Both the position numbers and the translations under genes were made by a program. 64,000 nucleotides of DNA from an uncultured Nannocystaceae bacterium (GTDB lineage Bacteria > Myxococcota_A > Polyangia > Nannocystales > Nannocystaceae). The notes beneath the pieces were generated by a model that saw only the letters and a program-made list of their open reading frames with translations, had not been told where the DNA came from and made no database searches. The stretch lies in the NCBI GenBank assembly GCA_964432695.1, contig CAYSPB010000001.1, positions 30,138 to 94,137 of the forward strand, read 5' to 3'. Shown piece after piece: positions 20,874 to 30,910 of this stretch (positions are counted from its first letter, which is position 1; each line of letters begins with the position of its first letter).

Positions 20874-22967
20874 TCAGGCGGGAAAGACACACAGCTGCTC
20901 CTGAAGGCAAACCATGCCCTCGGGACACTGCCCTTGTGCGTCACAGTCGACGACGCACTCGCCGACGCCGTCGGAGGTGAAGTCGCGGCAATCGAGGTCC
21001 ACGTCCGGTTCGCCGGGCAGGGCCGGGCAGTCGGAGTCCACGTGGCAACCCTGCGGCGCACACACCCCTGCGTCGAGGGCGGAGGACTGAAGGCAGATGT
21101 TGCCCTCGGCGCACACCGTCTGCGGGTCGCTCACGCAGTCGCCGTAGGGATCGATCTCTTCGGGCTCGACGGGTTCGTCGACGTCGTCTTCACCGGCGTC
21201 GTCCCCGGGCTGCACGGCGCACGCTGGGTCGTCGGTGATGCCGAGGTTGAGTGCGCATGTCGTCTCCGCGAATCGAGCGGTCCACGTGTCTCGCTTCACG
21301 CTGGTCGTTGCCAGCGGGGCGAGCACGGGATTGAGCGTACCGATGTTGGTGAGCAGCACGTCGGGTGAGAGGCCGAGTTCGGCCGCCGCCCGCTCGAGTG
21401 TCACGCTCTCTTCGAAGCGCGCGTTGCTCGTGGACACGGGTTCCAGCATGGAGGTCACGTCGACGCCCGCGAGCTGTTGGCTGCCCAAGAACGTCGCCGA
21501 GTCGTCGTCGACCAAGGCAGCGAACGCGGCCTGGTTCGGATACAGCGACTCGACGTGGTCCTTCGTTTGCGCGTCGAAGGCAACGCCCCCGAGTACGTAG
21601 TCCCGCACGTCGTCTTGGGCCCCGAGCACGTGCGAGTGGCAGCCGATGCATGAGGCGCCCGCACGCAGGCGTCCGTCCGGTTGAAGCGGGTCGCCGCTGA
21701 TGGCTGGGTCGCCCTCGTTGATGCGACCGCCGGCGCCGTCGAACAGCGCGTACGCCTGAAACCCGTTGGGCAGCGCGAAGATGACCGACCGCTGCGTCTC
21801 CTGAAAGTCGATGGGGCTCGTGAAGATGTTGCCCTCGGCGTTGCTGTCGTCGTTCACGTCGTACGCGATCCACAGCCCGCGGTCGGCACCGACGGCGGTC
21901 TCGTGACGCTCGATGATGCGGTTTTGCAGCGACGCTTCGGAGTCGAGCACGCCCGCGCGTGCGGCCTCCGCCGACGCGATGTTGTCGTTCACGTCGACAC
22001 CCAACCGGGCTTCGAGCTCTTGGAACGTGACGGGAATGTCGAGCAACTCGTAGTACGTGGGGGGGAGCAGCGCGACGTTGGCGAACGCGGTGTACATCAT
22101 CACCGGGACGTCGGATCCGGTCAGCTCGCGGAGCACGTCGCCGTCGTCGCCTGGCCGAATGAACGCGTACGGGTTGGCGTTGACCAGCAGCTCCCACTTG
22201 TTGGAGAGGTCTGCCACCGGTTGATCCCAGCCGTAGTCACGCAGGTCGACGCGGAAGACCGTCTCGGCTTCGTCGACGGCTTCGGGATTGGTGACACCCG
22301 GCTCGATCGACAGCGCGTTCACGGTCTTCCGCAGTGCCATCCGATGCAGCTCCAAGCTCTTCTGGCAGTCTGCATCGATGCCCAGCTCGACGAGCGTCAG
22401 GTAGCGGATGAAGGGTCGGTCATCGGCGTCGATTGCCAGCAGGTCGGCGGTCAGGGTCTTCAAGAGCGTGTCACCGCTCATGGCCACGCTCTCGGTACAG
22501 GTGGAATCGTCCCCAACGCACGCTTCGACGAACGACCCCAACCGTTCGGCGCTCCCCTCGGGGAGTGGTGCTGCCTCGGCTGGAGGCATCTCCCCAGCGA
22601 CGATGCGTTCCAGCAGAGGCGACGCATCAGGTGCGCCGGGGACGATCCACCCACCATCGACGAGACCCGCCACTCCACCACCCTCTGCGAGCGTCAGCTC
22701 CGCATGGCAGCCGCCGCAGTGGGTATCTAGGCTCGCAAGGGTCCAGGTGGCCTCCTGCGTGCAGTTCGTGGGTGGGGGCTCAGCATCGGGATCGGGTATC
22801 TCGGGATCGAGCGGGTCACCGGAGGAGTCTGCGTCCCCGGTGTCGGGTGTCGCACTCGTGGCTTCGTCATCGACGCCCGCGTAGGGAACGCCCGAGTAGC
22901 AGCCGGTCGAAAGTCCGGCGAGGACGAGCGTGGCGTGAAGGGGGCGTCGGAAGATCGAGTTGTGCAT
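20874..22967 (-). CDS. Lipoprotein with two CxxCH heme-binding motifs (N-terminal Planctomycete-cytochrome-c-like domain) and a Cys-rich C-terminal tail
   Basis: Starting at M15 gives MHNSIFRRPLHATLVLAGLSTGC (lipobox). HCGGCHAEL...GAPDASPLLERIVAGEMPP matches the PSCyt1-type pattern. A second site is SCIGCHSHV. The C-terminal roughly 90 aa hold 14 Cys. Paralog of 23058-24845. Confidence 0.75.
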   Translation of the reverse strand: MHNSIFRRPLHATLVLAGLSTGCYSGVPYAGVDDEATSATPDTGDADSSGDPLDPEIPDPDAEPPPTNCTQEATWTLASLDTHCGGCHAELTLAEGGGVAGLVDGGWIVPGAPDASPLLERIVAGEMPPAEAAPLPEGSAERLGSFVEACVGDDSTCTESVAMSGDTLLKTLTADLLAIDADDRPFIRYLTLVELGIDADCQKSLELHRMALRKTVNALSIEPGVTNPEAVDEAETVFRVDLRDYGWDQPVADLSNKWELLVNANPYAFIRPGDDGDVLRELTGSDVPVMMYTAFANVALLPPTYYELLDIPVTFQELEARLGVDVNDNIASAEAARAGVLDSEASLQNRIIERHETAVGADRGLWIAYDVNDDSNAEGNIFTSPIDFQETQRSVIFALPNGFQAYALFDGAGGRINEGDPAISGDPLQPDGRLRAGASCIGCHSHVLGAQDDVRDYVLGGVAFDAQTKDHVESLYPNQAAFAALVDDDSATFLGSQQLAGVDVTSMLEPVSTSNARFEESVTLERAAAELGLSPDVLLTNIGTLNPVLAPLATTSVKRDTWTARFAETTCALNLGITDDPACAVQPGDDAGEDDVDEPVEPEEIDPYGDCVSDPQTVCAEGNICLQSSALDAGVCAPQGCHVDSDCPALPGEPDVDLDCRDFTSDGVGECVVDCDAQGQCPEGMVCLQEQLCVFPA

Positions 22968-23057
22968 GGGTCGGATCCGAGAAATAGAGGGGACGTACGC
23001 TCGGACCATTCCGACCGCACGCCCCTCGGGGATGAGTGATGCTGGAAAAAGAAACTC

Positions 23058-24845
23058 CTATTCGCACTCGGGGTCGTCGGCGATCCCGAGGTTCAGCCGG
23101 CAGATTGTGTCGGCGAAGAGCGATGACCACGTGTTGCGTTTGACGCCGGTCGAAGCCAGAGGCGTGAGCGCCGGGTCGAGTGCGCCGAGCTGCGTGAGCA
23201 AGACCTCGGGCGCAATGCCCAGCTCCGCGGCCGCGACTTCGATGCTCACGTTGAACTGGAACCGCGCGAACGTATCCGAGACCGGTTCTTCCTCGAGACC
23301 CGGGTTGATGTCGAGCCCCGTGACCGCAGCCTGGTAGGTCTGCGTATCCGCAGCGACGACGTCGTCGAAGGAGGTCTGCGGCAGGTAGAGCGCCGCAACT
23401 GTGTCCTTCGTCTGTGCGTCGAACTCCACGCCGTTGAGCACGTAGTCACGCACCGAGTCCACTGCCGGGATGATGTGCGGGTGGCACCCGAAGCACGAGA
23501 CCCCGTTGCGGACGTTGTCGTCGTCCTGGGACGGATCGGTGACGATGGCGTCCGGAGCAACGTCGAGCCGATTGCCCGCCGCGTCGGTGAGCATGTACGC
23601 GTGCAACCCGTTGGGCAGCGAGAAGATGACCTCTCCGCCGGCCTCTTCGAAGTCGAGCGGGCTCGCGTAGATGTTCTCGGCCTCGTTGCTGTCGTCCTCG
23701 AAGTCGTAGCTGATCCAGAAGGCACGGTTCGACGCGAGCGGAATGTCGTGCCGCTCGATGATGCGGTTCTGGGTCGACACGCCCGAGTCGAGCACCCCTG
23801 CGCGGGCGACCTCTTCATCCTCGATGTTGTTGTTGATGTTCACGCCCAGCTGCGCCTGCAGCTCCTGCAGCGTCTCGGGAATGCCGACGAGGTCGTGGTA
23901 CAGGGGCGGCTGCGATGCAATGTCGATGAAAGCGTCTGCAGCGAGCATGGGGATGTTGGTACCCGAGAGCTGCTTGACCGTTTCCGCCTGGTCCTCGAGG
24001 CGTTCGACCGAGTAGGGACTCGCGTCGACGAGTGCTTCCCATTTGTCCGAGAAGCCCGCGACCGGAAGATCCCAGCCGTAGTCTCGAAGGTCGACCCGAA
24101 GGATCGTCGCGTCGGTGTCGATGGGGACGAGGCGGGCCAGCTGCGCTTCGTTGGAAAGCGCGTTGATGAGCTTCGTCGTCGCGTCGCGGTACGTCCGAAG
24201 GTCGTCTTCGCACAGACCGGCGTTGTAGAGGTGGGTCAGAGAGAGGTAGCGAATGAACTGTCGGTCGTCCGCATCGATCGTGGTGAGGTCCGCGATCATC
24301 AGCTCGAGGCTGTCGATGAGAGACAGCGACTGATCCGTGCAGTCGAGGTCCGGGCCAGACGGTCCGCATTCATCGATGTAGTCGCCGAGGCGGTCGATGG
24401 CAGTATCACTGGGCCGCGGCATCACGCCTGCGGGCGGCATCGTGCCCGCCTCTACGCGGGCGAACAGCGGCGAGCCGGCGGCGTCGCCGGGCACGATCAG
24501 TCCTAAGTCGATCAGGCTGTCGTAGTCGTCGATGTTGGCCAGACCGCCCTGGTCGGCCCCGTTGGCGTGGCAGTTCCCGCAATGCTCGATGACGAACTCT
24601 TCGAGCCACTCGGCTTCATCTTCACATGCCGCCTCGGGTGGGGGGTCGGAGTCCGGGGCGTCCGAGTCCGACGAGCCCGCGCTCACGCCCCCGCTCTCTT
24701 CGGCGCTGTCCGTCCCTTCGATGATTTCGCCATCGCCTTCGGTATCCGCAGAATCCGTGTCCGTCTCGAGCACGACGTACTCGATTGGGGCGCATGCGGT
24801 GAGCGCGGAGAGGGCAGCGATAGAAAAGCGTGAGGGGGTCGACAT
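23058..24845 (-). CDS. Lipoprotein with two CxxCH motifs; paralog of 20874-22967
   Basis: MSTPSRFSIAALSALTAC (lipobox). HCGNCHANGADQGGLANIDDYDSLIDLGLIVPGDAAGSPLFARVEAGTMPP and SCFGCHPHI are present. It aligns with its neighbour across the central region (DADDRQFIRYLSLTHL vs DADDRPFIRYLTLVEL; IIERHD vs IIERHE). It lacks the Cys-rich tail. Confidence 0.75.
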   Translation of the reverse strand: MSTPSRFSIAALSALTACAPIEYVVLETDTDSADTEGDGEIIEGTDSAEESGGVSAGSSDSDAPDSDPPPEAACEDEAEWLEEFVIEHCGNCHANGADQGGLANIDDYDSLIDLGLIVPGDAAGSPLFARVEAGTMPPAGVMPRPSDTAIDRLGDYIDECGPSGPDLDCTDQSLSLIDSLELMIADLTTIDADDRQFIRYLSLTHLYNAGLCEDDLRTYRDATTKLINALSNEAQLARLVPIDTDATILRVDLRDYGWDLPVAGFSDKWEALVDASPYSVERLEDQAETVKQLSGTNIPMLAADAFIDIASQPPLYHDLVGIPETLQELQAQLGVNINNNIEDEEVARAGVLDSGVSTQNRIIERHDIPLASNRAFWISYDFEDDSNEAENIYASPLDFEEAGGEVIFSLPNGLHAYMLTDAAGNRLDVAPDAIVTDPSQDDDNVRNGVSCFGCHPHIIPAVDSVRDYVLNGVEFDAQTKDTVAALYLPQTSFDDVVAADTQTYQAAVTGLDINPGLEEEPVSDTFARFQFNVSIEVAAAELGIAPEVLLTQLGALDPALTPLASTGVKRNTWSSLFADTICRLNLGIADDPECE

Positions 24846-24958
24846 CGTTCATCCCGTTCCTTCCAAGAGGCTTCCGGGTAGTCGCGATGGCGGCCCTGTT
24901 GTCAGCGGCTACTTCGATCTTTTTGGACGGATCGACCGTTCGGTCGCGCTCGCAAGCG

Positions 24959-26179
24959 TCAGCACGCTTCGGGCAAACCCCACGGCCCACGCAGGGTTTC
25001 GTCGAGTTCGTCGTTCGTTGCTGCATTGATCGCGTCGACCAGCCCACAAAGTGCAGTGGTCGGATCACGCGCGATCGGCTGTTCGGCAACCGCGTCGAAG
25101 ACCGAAACCACTGCGGTCGTGCCGTAGTCGGTCCGTACGCGCAGCAGCATCGCTGCAATGAGCTGGTCGGCGAAGAACCCCTCTGCGCTCCACCCCTCGG
25201 CGAACGTGGTTGCAAACCTCGATGGTGAACGTTCCCAGCGGGCGAGCTGTTCGAGCAACCGCCCCGGCTGATGGGCGTCGCTCGGCACGAGCAAAGCCGC
25301 GTCTGCGTCGGTCAGGCACATCGCGGAGATGGCGTGCGGTACCACCGAACGCCATGCATCGGTGGGCCAAACCGCCCGACCGTCGAGGGTGTCGGTCGAA
25401 AGACCTCGACCGATTCCAAAGAGAAGCGGCCAATGAGGCACGGGGCTGTCCGGATGCGCACGCATGTCGTCGCCGGAGGCCCGCGCGCCCTGAACGACGC
25501 CGCCTTCGGCACATATGCTCGCCGTACCCGTTTCGCAGTTCATCGGCTCGACATCCACGACGGCGAAGATGCGGCCCGAGCCGAGGTTCGAGTCTTCAGC
25601 GAGCGGGATCTCCTGTTGAAGCGTCATCGCGTAGGTGTCGACGCAGTCTGCGTACCACTGGCTCCACCGTGCGACCTCGTCGGGTGCAAGGTCGTCGACC
25701 CATGTGAAGAAGAGGACCTCGTCGTACCGCCACGCGTGCAGCGAGAGGTCGCCGTCGTACAGAGACGCGAAGGTCCGCACACCTTCGTAGGTGGCCGCAT
25801 CGCCCGTGGTGCTCGCTGTTGCGCTCGAACTCGAGCCGCCGCTCGCCTCGCCCGTCGACGTTTCGGAGCCCGTGGTGAGCGGCGGGGTTGGGGGGTCGTC
25901 CTCCGGGGGTACGCATCGTCCCGCGATGCTCATGGCCGCGTGGTTGCCGAACCGTCGTCCCGAGTCGCAGGTGTCGCTGGGGTAGCTGCAGTATGGAGGG
26001 CTAGCCTCACACCAGCCCTGCACACCACTGATGACGCACTGCGTGTCGTCGTCACAAGGGAAGAGGATGTGCTCGTTGCAACCGGTGAGTGGAAGGCACG
26101 CGACGGCAAGCCGCAGCGCGAGGTCTCGCAACCCCGCAGCGCCGCGGTTCCGGTGGCACCCTCTCGTGCGGTCGTTCAT
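24959..26179 (-). CDS. Hypothetical lipoprotein
   Basis: The ATG at 26179-26177 overlaps the upstream TGA as ATGA, giving MNDRTRG...LAVACLPLTGC (lipobox). This is followed by a Cys-rich segment, a Ser/Thr/Gly linker and a roughly 280-aa domain with no recognised family. Confidence 0.65.
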   Translation of the reverse strand: MNDRTRGCHRNRGAAGLRDLALRLAVACLPLTGCNEHILFPCDDDTQCVISGVQGWCEASPPYCSYPSDTCDSGRRFGNHAAMSIAGRCVPPEDDPPTPPLTTGSETSTGEASGGSSSSATASTTGDAATYEGVRTFASLYDGDLSLHAWRYDEVLFFTWVDDLAPDEVARWSQWYADCVDTYAMTLQQEIPLAEDSNLGSGRIFAVVDVEPMNCETGTASICAEGGVVQGARASGDDMRAHPDSPVPHWPLLFGIGRGLSTDTLDGRAVWPTDAWRSVVPHAISAMCLTDADAALLVPSDAHQPGRLLEQLARWERSPSRFATTFAEGWSAEGFFADQLIAAMLLRVRTDYGTTAVVSVFDAVAEQPIARDPTTALCGLVDAINAATNDELDETLRGPWGLPEAC

Positions 26180-26856
26180 CGTCGATGGCGTCGACGCCAA
26201 AGAGCTCGGGCGGTCGACGTGATGATGAGCGTACTGCCCACGGCGACGAACGTGGAGCCGATTGCGATCTCGGCTCGGCCTCGTCGAACTCGGCGGACGT
26301 AGTCGCTCTCGCTTTCGCCCCGCGGAGTTTGCTCCGCATCACGAAGGCCGACGGCCAGGAGCGGTGCGCCCACCGCCAGCGCTCCCACACCGCCCCCGAG
26401 CATGGCCCACGTTGCGCGGTCGGCGACGCGATCGGGACGGTCCGCCGTGCGCGTCGTGGCCGACGTCGGGGTCGGTTTCGGTCGCTCGACGATGGGGGGA
26501 GGAGGCTGCGGCTGCTCTTCGGGAGGCCGCTCTGGGTCTCCGCCGCAGCGCTCGATGTTCCGGGCTGCCTGAAAGCGATCGCGCTCGTCGAGCTCGGGCT
26601 CTTCGAGGAACTCGAAGTACGTTGGAATCGCGGCGTCGCAGTCGCCGGCAAGCCGGAGCGCCTGGGCCTCGTTGTACAGCGCCCAGCGGTCACCGGTGCG
26701 GTCGTGGAGCTCCGAGAACAGGGCCGCGGCCCGCTCGAACTGCTCGTCCTGCATGAAGGCGCTGGCTTTCTCGTAGATGGCCTCGTTCACCAGCTCGTCG
26801 GAGGCGTGCTCCGGCCCGGCGGAGCCGAGGAGGGCTGCAACGATCGCGGTGAGCAT
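26176..26856 (-). CDS. Membrane protein with a TPR-like N-terminal domain, a Pro-rich linker and two C-terminal TM segments
   Basis: 226 aa, starting 3 nt after the kinase stop. Contains a TPR-like helix pair (FERAAALFSELHDRTGDRWALYNEAQALRLAGDCDAAIPTYFEFL), PPEEQPQPPPP, then hydrophobic segments. Confidence 0.65.
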   Translation of the reverse strand: MLTAIVAALLGSAGPEHASDELVNEAIYEKASAFMQDEQFERAAALFSELHDRTGDRWALYNEAQALRLAGDCDAAIPTYFEFLEEPELDERDRFQAARNIERCGGDPERPPEEQPQPPPPIVERPKPTPTSATTRTADRPDRVADRATWAMLGGGVGALAVGAPLLAVGLRDAEQTPRGESESDYVRRVRRGRAEIAIGSTFVAVGSTLIITSTARALWRRRHRR

Positions 26857-26859
26857 CGC

Positions 26860-28407
26860 TCAGGCTCCCCCGCGGTAGGGCCGAACGCTGTCGAGGGTGG
26901 AGTCCCAACCCTTTCTGCGCTTCTTCGGCCGGCGTCTCTTTCGGCGGCGCTTGGGCTTCGAGGTCTTCGAAGCGGTGGCTCGTTTGGTTTCCGCATCGTC
27001 CTCGGACGGCGTAGACGACGTGTCGGGCGCGGGTTCCGGCGGCGACGGTGGGGCAACCTTGCCGACCGATGTCGGCTTGGTGCGCGCCGATGCGGGCGCC
27101 CGCTCCATGGGGGGCGGCGCACCGACGGACACCTCCGGGGCGACCGACGCGGGCCGGGTCTCGACCGGGATGTCGTCTGGCACCGCCCGTCGTTCGGGAC
27201 CTTTACTCGCGAGACTCAACCCGGCGGCGCAGACGAGGGACGCTGGGATGATCGCCCGGATCCACCAGTTGATTCGACCGCGGTGACGATAGACCGGCGG
27301 CCGACGAATCGGAAACTCGACCGTCTGCATTGCCGACAGACTGATCTCGTCCCCGTCGTCGTCCGCAATCCCCGGCTCGTACTCGGGCGGGAGAACTTCT
27401 GTGTCTCGCAGCTCGAGTGGATCGTGAGGCGCTGGGACTTCGTACGCAGCGATCCGCTCTTCGTCCGGGAACCATCGATGCAGGGCCCGTTGGATCGACG
27501 CTTCAGAGATCTCCAGGCCGGCGTCGTCGGCAAACGCCTCGAGCGCCTCGCAGATTTCCAAGGTGGTGCTGTAGCGGTCGCGTCGTTCGGTGGCCATTGC
27601 CCGCACGACGATGTCGTTGAGGCCGGCGGGGCATCGCGGATCGATGTCGCGGGGCGTGGGAATGTCGCCTCGGAGGATTCGCCCCATGGTGCGGAACTCG
27701 TCACTGCCGGGGAGCAGCCGTCGCCCGAGCATCATCTCGGCCATGACCACGCCCAGGCTGAAGATGTCCGCCCGGCGATCCATCGGCTCGCACCGGTACT
27801 GCTCCGGCGCCATGTAGCCGAACTTGCCCTTGATCGCGCCTCCGATGGTGGTGAGGGATCGGGCGGTCGCCTTGGCGATGCCGAAGTCGGCGAGCTTCAC
27901 CTGGCCATCGAATGTCAGGAGGATGTTCGATGGCGTGACGTCGCGATGCACCAGCCCCAGCGGGATGCCGTCGGAGTCCTTCGCTTCGTGGGCGAGATGG
28001 AGTGCCTGGCAAAGGTGGTACGCGATCGAGACCGTCGCCGCGAGCCCGGGCCCGCCCGACGATGCGCTGCGACGCAGGAGCTCGCGCAGGCCGGGGCCCG
28101 ACACGTATTCCATCGCGATGTAGCCCTCGATCTCCGAGAACCCCTCCACCCGCACGATGTTCGGATGGTCGAGCCCTTCGGCAACCGTGGCTTCGCGCCG
28201 CAGCATCGCCTCGAAGCCCGGCTCGTCCCGCAGCGACGGGTGCAGGACCTTGATGGCGAACAGTTTTCCGACCGCGTCGGGCGCGATCGAACGGGCCAGG
28301 TACACCTCGGCCATCCCGCCATGCCCGATCCGTCGCAGGAGACGGTACGGACCGATGTGGATAGGCTGGTTGGCGAGGCTGTCGAGATCTGCAAGCGGGC
28401 CGATCAT
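26860..28407 (-). CDS. Hanks-type Ser/Thr protein kinase with one TM and a Pro-rich, polybasic C-terminal tail
   Basis: The ATG at 28407-28405 overlaps the sigma-factor TGA as ATGA. Motifs are GHGGMAEVY, FAIKVL, HRDVTPSNILL, DFGIAKA and GYMAPEQ. TM is WWIRAIIPASLVCAAGLSLA. The tail ends KPKRRRKRRRPKKRRKG. Confidence 0.9.
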   Translation of the reverse strand: MIGPLADLDSLANQPIHIGPYRLLRRIGHGGMAEVYLARSIAPDAVGKLFAIKVLHPSLRDEPGFEAMLRREATVAEGLDHPNIVRVEGFSEIEGYIAMEYVSGPGLRELLRRSASSGGPGLAATVSIAYHLCQALHLAHEAKDSDGIPLGLVHRDVTPSNILLTFDGQVKLADFGIAKATARSLTTIGGAIKGKFGYMAPEQYRCEPMDRRADIFSLGVVMAEMMLGRRLLPGSDEFRTMGRILRGDIPTPRDIDPRCPAGLNDIVVRAMATERRDRYSTTLEICEALEAFADDAGLEISEASIQRALHRWFPDEERIAAYEVPAPHDPLELRDTEVLPPEYEPGIADDDGDEISLSAMQTVEFPIRRPPVYRHRGRINWWIRAIIPASLVCAAGLSLASKGPERRAVPDDIPVETRPASVAPEVSVGAPPPMERAPASARTKPTSVGKVAPPSPPEPAPDTSSTPSEDDAETKRATASKTSKPKRRRKRRRPKKRRKGWDSTLDSVRPYRGGA

Positions 28408-29102
28408 GACGTCGCGCCCGAAGCCAGCGCCCGGCTCCAGTCTTGCGTTGCGTGGATCGATCGCGTCCACGCGGTGAGGTCCTGCATCACGAGACTCGCC
28501 AGTTGATTCGACGGCCGCAGCTCATCCATGAAGGTGCGCAGCAGTACGCGCGTTCGGGCGAGCCGGGTCGTGACGGTGGTGACCGTGATGTTGAGTGCCT
28601 CGGCGATCTCTCGGCTGGACTTTCCGTCCGCGTAGTACAGCTCGAAGACGGCTCGCTGTGGTGCTGGCAGTTGGGAGATCGCGTAAAGCAGGAGCTGCTG
28701 CTCCTGGCGTCGGGCCACGAACCGACTCGGCGTCGTCATCGAGGGGGGCTCGTATTGGCTCTCGTCGAAGGCGTCCTGTGATGGGCCTCGGTATCGATCG
28801 CGTCGCTGCTGCGCGAGCTGGCGGCGTGCAATCGAGAACACCAGCGTTCGAAACGACGAACGTCCTTCGAACCCATCGAGCGCCTTCAGGCAGCCGATCA
28901 GAGTTTGCTGCGTGAGGTCGGCGGCGTTCTCGGGATCCCTCGCCTCGAAGTACCGCCGAACGGCCGCGTAGTGGCGTTCGAAGAGAACACCTCGCGCTCG
29001 TGCATCGCCTTGCTGAACTCGCCGTACGAGTTCAGCGTCCTTGACTGTGCCGGTGCCCCTCCCCGCACCGGTCCTACCCGGTTTGCAATCAGACTCGAAC
29101 AT
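28404..29102 (-). CDS. ECF-type sigma-70 family sigma factor with a roughly 45-aa C-terminal extension
   Basis: Region 2 (RRVQQGDARARGVLFERHYAAVRRYF ... DLTQQTL) and region 4 HTH (SSREIAEALNITVTTVTTRLARTR) are present. No anti-sigma ORF is adjacent. Start position is approximate. Confidence 0.85.
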   Translation of the reverse strand: MFESDCKPGRTGAGRGTGTVKDAELVRRVQQGDARARGVLFERHYAAVRRYFEARDPENAADLTQQTLIGCLKALDGFEGRSSFRTLVFSIARRQLAQQRRDRYRGPSQDAFDESQYEPPSMTTPSRFVARRQEQQLLLYAISQLPAPQRAVFELYYADGKSSREIAEALNITVTTVTTRLARTRVLLRTFMDELRPSNQLASLVMQDLTAWTRSIHATQDWSRALASGATS

Positions 29103-29416
29103 CCCCGCTACCCCAGCAAGGATGGTTACGCGCCGGGAGCAGCGGTGTCATCCTCCATTCGCGCAGATACGAAGAGATCCTCGGTTCTGTTCGAGCAGTA
29201 GTTGTGTCGCTCCTCGCGGGGAGATCAGTTCCGTCGATTTTCGAGCTATCTTCGGCCGACCTGGATCCGAACCTGCGGCCGCAACGCGAACGACCGGCCG
29301 GTGAAGATCGACCGCGACACCACGTGCATCGTGCCATCACGGCCGGAGGGTCGCCTGTCTCCCGAGGGCATGCCGCGGCGGGTCGATCCGGCCGCGGCAC
29401 GTCCTCGTCGTCGACG

Positions 29417-30910
29417 TCAGCCGAGCTGGATGTCCCCGAGCAGCATCTCGAGGATCGTGGCCACGGGGAAGCCGCTGCCGCCTGGCGTGGTCACGCCGTG
29501 GGCCTTGTTCGCCATCGCCGGGCCCGCGATGTCGACGTGCATCCATCGTTTACCTTCGATGAACTCGCTAAGGAACAGTCCGGCCGTGAGCGCGCCGCCA
29601 AACCGCTCTCCGGTGTTCTTCATGTCGGCGATCTTGCTTTGGAGCTGCTCCTTGAGCTTCGCCTGCAGTGGAAGGCGCCACATCAGCTCGCCGCTTCGGT
29701 CTGCTGCAGACATCCAATCGGCTGCCAGACGCTCGTCCTCGGTCATCACGCCCGCGATGTACGGCCCGAGCGCCACGATGCAGGCGCCGGTCAGCGTCGC
29801 GAAGTCGATCATCAGGTCCGGTTCCAGCTTGGAGCCGTAGACCAACGCGTCGGCCATGGTGAGTCGGCCCTCGGCGTCGGTGTTGTTGACCTCGACGGTC
29901 TTGCCGTTGGAGGCGGTGAGAACGTCGCCAAGCCGGTACGCATGGCCGCTCACCATGTTTTCGGTCGCTGCGACGAGGACGTGCACTTCGTACGAGACGC
30001 CGAGCTTCACCAGGCCCTGGAACGCACCGATCACCGCGGCCGAACCGGACATGTCCAGCTTCATGTCGAGCATGCCCGCGGTCGGCTTGATCGAGTAGCC
30101 GCCGGAGTCGAAGGTGACCCCCTTGCCGATCAGGACGATGCGCCCCTTGGAAGTGCCTTTTGGCGTATAGCTGAGGTGGATGAACTTGGGGGGTTCGGCG
30201 CTGCCTTTCGCGACCCCGAGGTAACAACCCATGTTCCGGGCTTCGCACTCGGCCTTGTCGAGCACGGTCAGCGAGACGTTCGCGTCACCGGCCGCGTCGA
30301 CGATTTCCTTGGCTGTGTCGGCGAGGAACGTCGGCGTCACGAGCTCGGCCGGACCGTTGGAAAGGTCGCGCGCGCGGGCAATCGCCGCTGCGATGACCTG
30401 TCCCGAATCCGTCCCTTCGGCGGGCGCTGTCGTCGAAGCCCACACGGTGACGGTCGCAACCGAGCTGGGCTTCGCTTCGCTCAGGAAGCGGTCGTACGCG
30501 TACGTGCCGAGCTCGAGGCCCTGCGCAAACAAGCGACCGTCACGCTGCGCATCGTCGCTCGGGCTCCAGTCGATGCTCGATGACTGCAGATCGAGCACAA
30601 CATGCGTGCCACCGGTCTTGGCGGCTTCTCGGACCGCGTCGTGTCCGACCTGACGCAGCGACTCGGCGTCGACGAGACCGTCACCCGTGCCGAGCAAAAG
30701 AACCCGCTCGAGCACGTCACCATGCGCACGGGTGAAGTCGAAGACCTCGGATGCTTTGCCTTTGAAACGTGCGGCTTCGATCGCAGCCCGCACGCCTGCC
30801 CCGAAACGGGCCTCGAGAACGGAAGGATCGAACTCGGCTCGCACGGGAACGGCGAGCACCTGACCTGCCGCAGGCTGCGGCTCTTCGGTGGTCCACTGAA
30901 TTTTGAGCAT
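29417..30910 (-). CDS. pepA: Leucyl aminopeptidase (M17 family)
   Basis: 497 aa. Has the NTDAEGRL signature, VLIGKGVTFDSGGYSIKP, and metal/bicarbonate site residues in the typical order. Confidence 0.93.
   Translation of the reverse strand: MLKIQWTTEEPQPAAGQVLAVPVRAEFDPSVLEARFGAGVRAAIEAARFKGKASEVFDFTRAHGDVLERVLLLGTGDGLVDAESLRQVGHDAVREAAKTGGTHVVLDLQSSSIDWSPSDDAQRDGRLFAQGLELGTYAYDRFLSEAKPSSVATVTVWASTTAPAEGTDSGQVIAAAIARARDLSNGPAELVTPTFLADTAKEIVDAAGDANVSLTVLDKAECEARNMGCYLGVAKGSAEPPKFIHLSYTPKGTSKGRIVLIGKGVTFDSGGYSIKPTAGMLDMKLDMSGSAAVIGAFQGLVKLGVSYEVHVLVAATENMVSGHAYRLGDVLTASNGKTVEVNNTDAEGRLTMADALVYGSKLEPDLMIDFATLTGACIVALGPYIAGVMTEDERLAADWMSAADRSGELMWRLPLQAKLKEQLQSKIADMKNTGERFGGALTAGLFLSEFIEGKRWMHVDIAGPAMANKAHGVTTPGGSGFPVATILEMLLGDIQLG

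Follow-up and report, generated by a model that had tools for sequence, protein, structure and literature searches.

The 64,000-nt stretch of DNA analysed here (the window) comes from an uncultured, marine-type myxobacterium and encodes an ECF sigma factor whose gene runs directly into that of a Hanks-type Ser/Thr kinase, with no anti-sigma gene found beside them. The question raised by this locus is how the activity of such a sigma factor is controlled. An earlier note had taken the arrangement for a four-gene version of the EcfP/PknT system of Vibrio, in which threonine phosphorylation activates the sigma factor, and had assigned to it an autoregulated promoter and a regulon of downstream heme lipoproteins. 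The present analysis upheld the pairing without an anti-sigma factor and the heme output, whereas the EcfP/PknT mechanism, the proposed promoter and the four-gene unit were not supported. The explanation that we favor, with a probability of roughly 55%, is that the kinase controls the sigma factor through a switch other than that of ECF43 and that the heme genes are the output.

Organization of the locus

The sigma factor was assigned to the ECF group (group 4) of the sigma-70 family by its Pfam domains (Sigma70_r2, residues 43-105; r4_2, residues 136-186), by TIGR02937 (98 bits against a cut-off of 43, with the match ending at residue 190 of 232) and by its predicted fold. The AF2 model had a pLDDT of 86, and its top fold matches were RpoE and AlgU (ECF02), which were also the closest matches by sequence. 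A search of NCBIfam for an ECF43-type assignment gave no model at its cut-off. An ortholog was found in one of 19 related genomes, with 49% identity. The contig search with a six-sequence alignment returned matches that were all MAGs. No RNA runs containing the locus sequence were found, and the sequence was present only in DNA runs, from a biofilm metagenome. The coordinates of the features are given in Table 1.

Table 1. Features of the sigma-kinase locus and its surroundings, in window positions
Feature	Position	Strand	Basis
ECF sigma factor, 232 aa; Myxococcota family expanded in the lineage	28404-29102	-	Pfam, TIGR02937, AF2
Sigma region 2.2, residues 59-67, N-A-A-D-L-T-Q-Q-T	28902-28928	-	HMMER alignment, column statistics
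Linker/sigma-4 N-cap motif T123-T124-P125-S126; candidate phosphosite cluster	28725-28736	-	Column statistics
C-terminal sigma extension, residues about 191-232, near-invariant Trp212	28407-28532	-	Alignments, AF2
Hanks Ser/Thr kinase, 515 aa	26860-28407	-	Pkinase, 123 bits
Kinase domain, residues 21-297	27517-28347	-	Pfam Pkinase
Single kinase TM helix, residues about 381-403	27199-27267	-	Hydropathy
Polybasic block KPKRRRKRRRPKKRRK, near the end of the extracytoplasmic kinase tail	26911-26958	-	Ortholog comparison
TPR protein, two TM helices at the C terminus; probable partner of the kinase	26176-26856	-	Pfam, TM windows
Lipoprotein, 406 aa, lipobox LTGC	24959-26179	-	No family match
Heme lipoprotein 1, 595 aa, two CxxCH, PSCyt1; probable output	23058-24845	-	Pfam, synteny
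Heme lipoprotein 2, 711 aa, PSCyt1, paralog of heme lipoprotein 1	20874-23009	-	Pfam, synteny
Candidate sigma-dependent promoter of the heme genes, CTGACA-N17-ACTACC	24877-24905	-	Motif conservation
Degenerate motif copy upstream of the sigma gene, ATGACA-N17-TAACCA	29123-29151	-	Weak evidence
GAAC-N17-CGTA element of the earlier note	29168-29192	-	Present, chance frequency, not conserved

As had been described, the sigma stop and the kinase start overlap, the ATGA at 28407-28404 containing the kinase ATG. This ATG was preferred over the upstream GTG at 28470 as the kinase start because orthologous kinases show M-x-G N-termini, which it fits better. The translational coupling is peculiar to the window; the sigma and kinase genes of relatives are separated by 25, 48, 66, 142 or 267 nt. 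The 3-nt gap between the kinase and the TPR/2-TM gene and the second ATGA overlap, at 26179-26176 into the lipoprotein gene, were likewise confirmed. The four genes do not form a conserved unit, however, as the lipoprotein, which matched no Pfam or NCBIfam family, is missing from the orthologous locus L001, and the TPR/2-TM gene tracks kinases with or without a sigma gene.

The reported lack of an anti-sigma ORF also held, since Pfam and NCBIfam detected no anti-sigma domain in the four proteins. The ZAS motif HxxxCxxC was not found in any frame of positions 24800-29450. The locus is not a canonical ECF/anti-sigma pair: the +1 gene encodes the kinase, and the four downstream proteins carry no anti-sigma domain. 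An unrecognised or distant anti-sigma factor may exist.

Past region 4.2 the sigma factor continues for 42-46 residues (r4_2 ends at residue 186 and the TIGR02937 match at 190), in agreement with the extension of about 45 residues noted before. AF2 predicted two helices in it, at residues 199-207 and 209-229 (pLDDT 80-90), and sequence alignments revealed the family motif LxxWAxxLR around Trp212. The family members of genome G016 carry the extension, whereas ECFs outside the family do not.

A sigma family linked to Hanks kinases

The sigma factor is a member of a Myxococcota-specific ECF family that dozens of duplications have expanded in this lineage, along with Hanks kinases. Forty-three paralogs were counted in this genome at a membership threshold of at least 160 bits, with a clear gap to the remaining ECFs (below 140 bits); genomes of the genus hold about 40-76 copies. 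A kinase was encoded within 1.5 kb of 32 of the 43 family sigmas, compared with 7 of 94 other ECFs (Fisher p = 2e-15), and the same distance held for 12 of 15 family sigmas in a second genus. In the window's own sigma clade, a kinase follows in all five members with readable downstream sequence. Among metagenomic homolog loci, a kinase was adjacent in seven of the first eight examined and in loci L030 and L032 as well. The pairing of sigma factor and kinase without an anti-sigma gene, as pointed out in the earlier note, is thus real and conserved.

The pairs occur in all four relative orientations, so the link exceeds co-transcription. The distances between sigma factors and between kinase domains were correlated (r = 0.44, Mantel p = 4e-4), a co-divergence that co-duplication alone can produce. 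The duplications gave many modules of one sigma factor and one kinase, without an anti-sigma factor, and the host of the window has about 40 of them.

The kinase and the TPR/2-TM protein

The top PDB matches of the kinase were PknE, StkP and PknB. Lys53, Glu72, HRD154-156, Asn161, DFG174-176 and the APE motif (P201-E202) were invariant across five kinase orthologs, and with all motifs in place the protein is, as judged from its sequence, a catalytically intact Hanks-type kinase. Its tail is rich in Pro, Ala and Ser and disordered, with no folded sensor domain. A basic block comparable to that of the window was present in all four full-length orthologous kinases. A sigma-docking motif was sought in the approximately 55 residues past the kinase domain with a profile from the five orthologs; it occurred in 2 of 35 sigma-paired kinases versus 5 of 175 kinases, and the candidate was dropped for want of enrichment.

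The TPR/2-TM protein gave weak matches to TPR_12 and TPR_16 and showed TM windows at residues of about 150 and 195. Its homologs come after the kinase in loci L002 and L005. Three jackhmmer rounds found 80 paralogous matches in the genome, of which about 30 were strong. Of the best 40 of the 80, 17 had a kinase ORF no more than about 0.6 kb away and only 4 had a family sigma nearby. The idea that this protein is the missing anti-sigma factor was reduced to a rival explanation, its paralogs tracking kinases and not sigmas.

Region 2.2 and the linker of the sigma factor

In the HMMER alignment, the sigma factor retains Asp62 alone of the canonical DxxDxxQE acids of region 2.2, where RpoE reads DVPDVVQEA and AlgU reads EAQDVAQEA; Gln65 is still present as well. 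The position of the ECF43 phospho-threonine is occupied by Ala61 (N59-A-A61-D62). Across the family, the third position of the motif is D/E in 73% and the fourth in 100% of the members, and the change of DAED to a QTTA-type sequence with a third-position Thr, which marks ECF43, was found neither in the window sigma nor in its family. The EcfP/PknT mechanism as such fits neither the Ala here nor the Glu/Asp-Asp of the wider family; because Ala takes the position, the switch is not the sigma-2.2 threonine of ECF43. The retention of Glu/Asp-Asp means that the family sigmas may bind core RNA polymerase unmodified.

The glutamate of the 'QE' pair is part of the core-binding face of region 2.2. Its column is acidic in 82% of non-family ECFs versus 13% of the family, and Thr64 and Thr67, which lie beside the lost Glu, are candidate phosphosites.

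A further candidate lies at the linker motif, which has the family consensus [ST]-P-[ST] and is retained in the second genus. At the Ser126 column, 83% of the family have S/T, whereas 57% of the other ECFs of the genome have D/E, and in the comparison of family with non-family columns it was the only one to show such a swap of acid for S/T. The AF2 helix begins at residue 125, and Ser126, at the helix N-cap, may be purely structural. In the alignment to RpoE, the acidic mid-linker stretch precedes Ser126 by about 12-15 residues. That stretch, which is taken as the counterpart of EcfK T106 from its spacing to the sigma-2.2 motif, remains acidic in the window sigma (D111, D114, E115, E119).

Heme lipoprotein genes and candidate promoters

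The suggestion that the heme lipoproteins are the likely regulon drew support from synteny and from a conserved promoter-like motif. In L001, an ortholog of heme lipoprotein 1 (61% identical) comes after the kinase and one of heme lipoprotein 2 (44% identical) keeps its position; heme-gene orthologs also come after the kinase in a JGI contig. The heme lipoprotein family has only two members in the genome, both in the window locus. A heme lipoprotein model (pLDDT 87, pTM 0.80) had no PDB fold match with E below 1.

The motif TGACAA-N16-ACWAY matched once in the 8.34-Mb genome, upstream of the heme genes. In the genome that carries L001 there were three matches, two of which lie upstream of the sigma gene and of the orthologous heme gene, and the motif precedes the sigma gene in L030 as well. 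Six same-genus genomes without the window's sigma clade gave zero matches. The total count did not exceed that of a reversed-pattern control, so that only the placement of the motif is telling. From this placement we infer that the TGACAA-N16-ACTAC promoter depends on the window sigma. Upstream of the window's own sigma gene, the -35 half of the degenerate copy fits the motif and the -10 half does not.

The GAAC-N17-CGTA element, read in the earlier note as an autoregulated promoter, is present at 29192-29168. GAAC-N16-18-CGTA occurred six times in the window versus 2.6 expected, and 6 of 100 shuffles reached six. It was not enriched upstream of the 43 paralogs (8 of 43 versus a background of 13%) and was absent upstream of two readable orthologous sigma genes. 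On these grounds its role as a promoter was rejected. Among the earlier observations, the gene layout, the extension and the missing anti-sigma factor stood, and a promoter element beyond chance did not.

Control of the sigma factor

In the favored explanation, the single-pass membrane kinase, with a tail ending in the polybasic block, and the TPR/2-TM partner would form the input side. The kinase would control the activity of the sigma factor, most likely via direct phosphorylation, which is plausible. The switch might be the [ST]-P-[ST] motif (T123/T124/S126), where other ECFs carry an acid, or Thr64 and Thr67 beside the lost 'QE' Glu. The active sigma factor would then transcribe both heme lipoprotein genes from the TGACAA-N16-ACTAC promoter and probably its own operon as well. 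Since the family does not have the phosphorylation switch of the known cases, it probably works somewhat differently from them.

The kinase could instead act indirectly, by phosphorylating an inhibitor, either the TPR/2-TM protein as a tether or an anti-sigma factor encoded elsewhere. In the window, L002 and L005, the TPR/2-TM gene is a close neighbor of the kinase gene, and the positive-inside rule suggests that the TPR domain of its product may lie in the cytoplasm. There are also precedents: ECF267 reportedly combines a kinase with a TPR-containing putative anti-sigma factor (PMC7826278), and PknB of Mycobacterium tuberculosis phosphorylates the anti-sigma factors RshA and RseA (PMC8999054). 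We nevertheless consider this route unlikely, because the TPR/2-TM paralogs mostly lie beside kinases with no sigma gene, the long kinases with which most family sigmas are paired lack a partner of this kind, and L001 keeps the sigma, kinase and heme genes without the TPR/2-TM gene. In addition, Pfam and NCBIfam detected no anti-sigma or FecR domain in the window proteins.

Less probable again is that the C-terminal Trp helix is the switch, acting in cis as an autoinhibitor or by binding a partner, after the pattern of ECF41, ECF42 or ECF238, with the kinase as a modulator or a co-regulated neighbor. The helix is a hallmark of the family that other ECFs do not have, its helical structure is predicted with good scores, and short C-terminal extensions have been proposed as regulators in ECF groups without anti-sigma factors (PMC7826278). 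However, this would leave the strong, orientation-independent kinase linkage and the co-divergence unexplained, and the extension has no cofactor-binding motif. The least probable of the alternatives is control of the sigma factor by its own transcription alone, so that it is active once made and the kinase is a regulon member with other targets. The retention of Asp62 and Gln65 here and of Glu/Asp-Asp family-wide would agree with this, as would the co-transcription of sigma and kinase genes in the window through the ATGA overlap. Divergent and convergent pairs are nevertheless common, so co-transcription is not what maintains the pairing. It would also be difficult to see why a sigma factor that is always active should have lost the 'QE' glutamate across its family.

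An extended form of the phosphorylation model can be offered only tentatively, as we consider it more doubtful than not. The family might be an independently evolved, phosphorylation-gated ECF class, in which the 'QE' Glu was lost, the [ST]-P-[ST] acceptor took the place of an acid at the boundary of linker and sigma-4 and the Trp helix possibly serves in kinase docking or autoinhibition. The family would then have radiated into about 40-70 insulated pairs per genome and, if so, would pose with kinases the same problem of paralog specificity that two-component systems present. In the subfamily of the window sigma, a sensorless kinase and a TPR/2-TM partner would control exported 'planctomycete-type' cytochrome proteins.

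The locus is a real kinase-linked ECF module, of a kind of pairing that is already known, and another such pair without an anti-sigma factor is unsurprising by itself. Kinase-linked ECF groups other than ECF43 keep the acidic sigma-2.2 residues, so that their activation may differ, in a mode that is still unknown (PMC8999054). The family provides a concrete case of this problem, with a sequence signature of two charge-loss positions, one of them now Ser/Thr, and a conserved C-terminal helix. Its dozens of natural pairs per genome are material for specificity studies, and for a reporter assay the window module supplies a defined candidate promoter together with output genes.

Comparison with known systems

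EcfP and EcfK have been demonstrated to be phosphorylated directly, in part at linker sites where other ECFs have acids (PMC13147305). As in these ECF43 systems (EcfP/PknT of Vibrio parahaemolyticus and EcfK/PknS of Xanthomonas citri), the window sigma gene adjoins that of a membrane Hanks kinase, no co-encoded anti-sigma factor was detected, and the acidic residues that contact RNA polymerase are partly replaced. Ser/Thr sites in the linker in place of the acids of other ECFs are a likeness to EcfK in particular (PMC13147305; PMC8999054). In contrast, where ECF43 has changed DAED to QTTA, STTA or QATE, with Thr in 88% of its members, the window sigma has N-A-A-D and its family [ED]-D. The family has also lost the 'QE' Glu, carries its S/T motif at the sigma-4 N-cap and not in mid-linker, possesses the conserved C-terminal Trp helix and reaches about 40-76 copies per genome. 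PknS has periplasmic TPRs, whereas the window kinase has no folded sensor domain.

ECF267 was compared by its description (Casas-Pastor et al. 2021, PMC7826278), which treats it as proteobacterial (in the old sense) and puts it next to the RpoE-like groups ECF02 and ECF32. Its neighborhood resembles the window in combining a protein kinase with a TPR-containing putative regulator, but that TPR protein is described as FecR-like and no FecR domain was detected in the window proteins. ECF267 comprises only 28 proteins, which is hard to reconcile with dozens of copies per Nannocystaceae genome.

In M. tuberculosis, the Hanks kinase PknB likewise acts on ECF pathways, those of SigH/RshA and SigE/RseA, and phosphorylation also occurs on linker threonines of SigH itself. 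Unlike the window sigma, SigH and SigE have ZAS anti-sigma factors, which are functional targets of the kinase, and the kinase is not encoded beside the sigma gene.

The planctomycete groups ECF59-62 and ECF217, also compared by description, are linked to kinases and lack anti-sigma factors, like the window sigma, and belong to another phylum. To our knowledge, none of them has been characterised experimentally. PSCyt/PSD 'planctomycete cytochrome' proteins abound in their hosts and are also found repeatedly beside the window's sigma subfamily. The window module also ties its regulators to abundant PSCyt/PSD protein families of unknown function.

Organization of the gene block

The block comprises six closely packed genes, with a leucyl aminopeptidase gene as its upstream neighbour, and the third-position GC content of 0.74-0.84 supported all six reading frames. 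Except for the promoter, the observation reported in the earlier note is real. The sigma factor and kinase genes overlap by an ATGA at 28407-28404, 3 nt separate the kinase gene from the TPR gene, and the TPR and lipoprotein genes share an ATGA at 26179-26176; the first heme gene is preceded by a 113-nt gap. The M-x-G N-termini of orthologous kinases supported a kinase start at the sigma-kinase ATGA. The coupling of sigma factor and kinase by ATGA was not kept in relatives, where gaps of 25 to 267 nt were found. The claim that the block lacks an anti-sigma factor was likewise borne out, as Pfam and NCBIfam gave no anti-sigma domain in any block protein; the HxxxCxxC motif was absent from every frame of 24800-29450, and the coding strand of the block lacks space for another gene. 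No family match was found for the 406-aa lipoprotein, which is not conserved at the orthologous locus, only its N-terminal ~80 residues resembling a protein of L005, one of the loci around metagenomic homologs.

Features of the block and its upstream motifs
Feature	Coordinates	Strand	Remarks
ECF sigma factor	28404-29102	-	232 aa
Hanks kinase	26860-28407	-	515 aa
TPR protein	26176-26856	-	two C-terminal TM helices
Lipoprotein	24959-26179	-	406 aa; Cys-rich N-terminal segment
Heme lipoprotein 1 (heme595)	23058-24845	-	PSCyt1 domain
Heme lipoprotein 2	20874-23009	-	PSCyt1 domain; paralog of heme lipoprotein 1
(G/C)TGACA-N17-AC(T/A)A(C/T)	24905-24877	-	upstream of heme595
Degenerate motif copy	29151-29123	-	only copy 5' of the window's own sigma gene

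Distribution of the sigma factor family and its linkage to kinases

A public protein search returned only 17 relatives of the window's sigma factor, all in MAGs and metagenomes of Nannocystales or Myxococcota. With a profile of these relatives, 43 family paralogs scoring 160-280 bits were found in the window's own genome, G000 (8.34 Mb, 72% complete), with a clean gap to its other ECF sigma factors (<140 bits); in all, G000 encodes at least 150 ECF sigma factors and has about 210 Hanks-kinase ORFs. The family has about 40-76 copies per genome within the genus, 3-64 in other genera of the same GTDB family, and 1-4 beyond it, there in only 15 of the 249 other Myxococcota genomes sampled. The window's sigma factor is therefore part of a large lineage-specific family, in which its own clade (with P0001-P0005) is rare, having an ortholog in only one of 19 related genomes, at 49% identity.

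A kinase ORF lay within 1.5 kb of 32 of the 43 family sigma genes in G000, versus 7 of 94 other ECF genes (Fisher p = 2e-15). The gene orders included sigma-then-kinase, kinase-then-sigma, divergent and convergent, and the partner kinases were 485-1195 aa long. Another genus, represented by a nearly complete genome, had a kinase gene inside this distance for 12 of 15 family sigma genes. Among metagenomic homologs, an adjacent kinase was found at seven of the eight loci examined first (one of these kinases had earlier been labelled 'no Pfam'), and sigma was followed by kinase at L030 and L032. Pairwise distances of sigma factors and neighbouring kinase domains correlated (r = 0.44, Mantel p = 4e-4), indicating that the pairs duplicate and diverge as units.

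The kinase and the TPR protein

The kinase retains all catalytic motifs and has a single TM helix, after which no folded domain follows. Its extracytoplasmic tail (26863-27198) is disordered and Pro/Ala/Ser-rich and contains an acidic patch as well as a terminal Arg/Lys block (26911-26958). All four full-length orthologs share this design, although their sequence identity is low. It is unusual for a polybasic segment to lie outside the membrane, where it could interact with anionic envelope polymers.

The TPR protein might tether the sigma factor and so act in place of an anti-sigma factor, or it might serve the kinase. Its homologs lie directly 3' of the kinase gene at L002 and L005, and its paralog family in G000 is large (80 jackhmmer matches), with members often directly after kinase genes. 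Of the best 40 of these 80 matches, 17 had a kinase ORF within ~0.6 kb and only 4 had a family sigma gene nearby; the TPR gene is missing from the orthologous locus L001 (genome G005). This distribution points to a partner of the kinase more than to an anti-sigma factor, with tethering kept as the rival reading.

Heme lipoproteins and upstream motifs

At L001, orthologs of both heme proteins (61% and 44-46% identity) follow the kinase, and a PSCyt1 protein does so on a JGI contig. The two heme proteins of the window are the sole members of their family in G000. In another Nannocystaceae MAG (L033:5933-10689), the same pair lies after the gene of a canonical ECF (HVED...QD) and a 65-aa ORF; the pair is therefore a recurrent, probably ECF-controlled cargo, in this MAG with an ECF system of another type. 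This 65-aa ORF resembles a short anti-sigma factor. The AF2 model of heme595 was confident (pLDDT 87, pTM 0.80) and matched no PDB fold at E <1. A total of 118 homologs of the heme lipoproteins were found, spread over Myxococcota, Planctomycetota, Bdellovibrionota and Verrucomicrobiota and often fused to WD40, TPR, LRR or DUF4384 domains; JGI labels many of them 'serine/threonine-protein kinase', with a kinase-domain Pfam in none among the matches listed.

The GAAC-N17-CGTA element proposed earlier as a promoter found no support. Comparison of upstream regions yielded another bipartite motif, (G/C)TGACA-N17-AC(T/A)A(C/T), which lies 5' of heme595 in the window. At L001 it precedes both the sigma gene and the heme ortholog, and at L030 the sigma gene. 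The form TGACAA-N16-ACWAY had a single match in the 8.34 Mb of G000, at the heme595 upstream site, and three in G005, two of them at L001; six same-genus genomes without the window's sigma clade had none. Its total count did not exceed that of a reversed-pattern control, so it is the placement that carries evidence.

Paralogous modules of sigma factor, short kinase and TPR protein, in G000 and at metagenomic loci, adjoin other planctomycete-type proteins: a PSD3/5/4-PSCyt3-PSD2 protein and DUF1552 at C19:28578-36638 (L035), a PSD/PSCyt3 protein at C4:29778-37073 (L036), and PSD/PSCyt3 proteins with DUF1552 or DUF1501 at L005 and L002. An RCC1-repeat protein and a bestrophin-like channel are further neighbours of modules of the L035/L036 type. 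'Planctomycete-specific' protein families are recurrent neighbours of regulators in this sigma subfamily.

Comparison with the ECF43 switch

ECF43 sigma factors carry QTTA (STTA in EcfP, QATE in EcfK) in place of the acidic sigma-2.2 motif DAED, and phosphorylation of the third-position Thr restores beta' binding; EcfK also requires the linker site T106, which is acidic in other ECFs (PMC13147305; PMC8999054). Alignment to RpoE and AlgU placed N59-A-A61-D62-L-T64-Q-Q66-T67 in sigma-2.2 of the window's protein. The EcfP/PknT mechanism as such, suggested in the earlier note, does not fit: the phospho-Thr position is occupied by Ala61, so the EcfP switch cannot work here in its published form. 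Taken as a whole, the family also departs from the ECF43 definition, keeping Glu/Asp at position 3 (73%) and position 4 (100%).

The family differs from other ECFs of G000 elsewhere. The position of the Glu of 'QE' is acidic in 82% of the latter versus 13% of the family, in which it is often Arg/Lys, and the following Thr position is S/T in 97% of the family versus 32% of other ECFs. A [ST]-P-[ST] motif opens the first sigma-4 helix, and the Ser126 column, S/T in 83% of the family where 57% of other ECFs have D/E, is the only one with such an acid-to-S/T swap. A C-terminal extension of ~40 residues, predicted to form two helices, carries a near-invariant Trp (LxxWAxxLR). The loss of the 'QE' Glu and the [ST]-P-[ST] motif may be parts of a different phospho-switch; Ser126, being at a helix N-cap, can have a purely structural role. 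[quoted passage not shown] Ser126 does not correspond in position to EcfK T106, as the mid-linker here is still acidic. In summary, the module belongs to an already known kind, the kinase-linked ECF sigma factors without an anti-sigma factor, and its family, which is without the ECF43 switch, carries a signature of its own.
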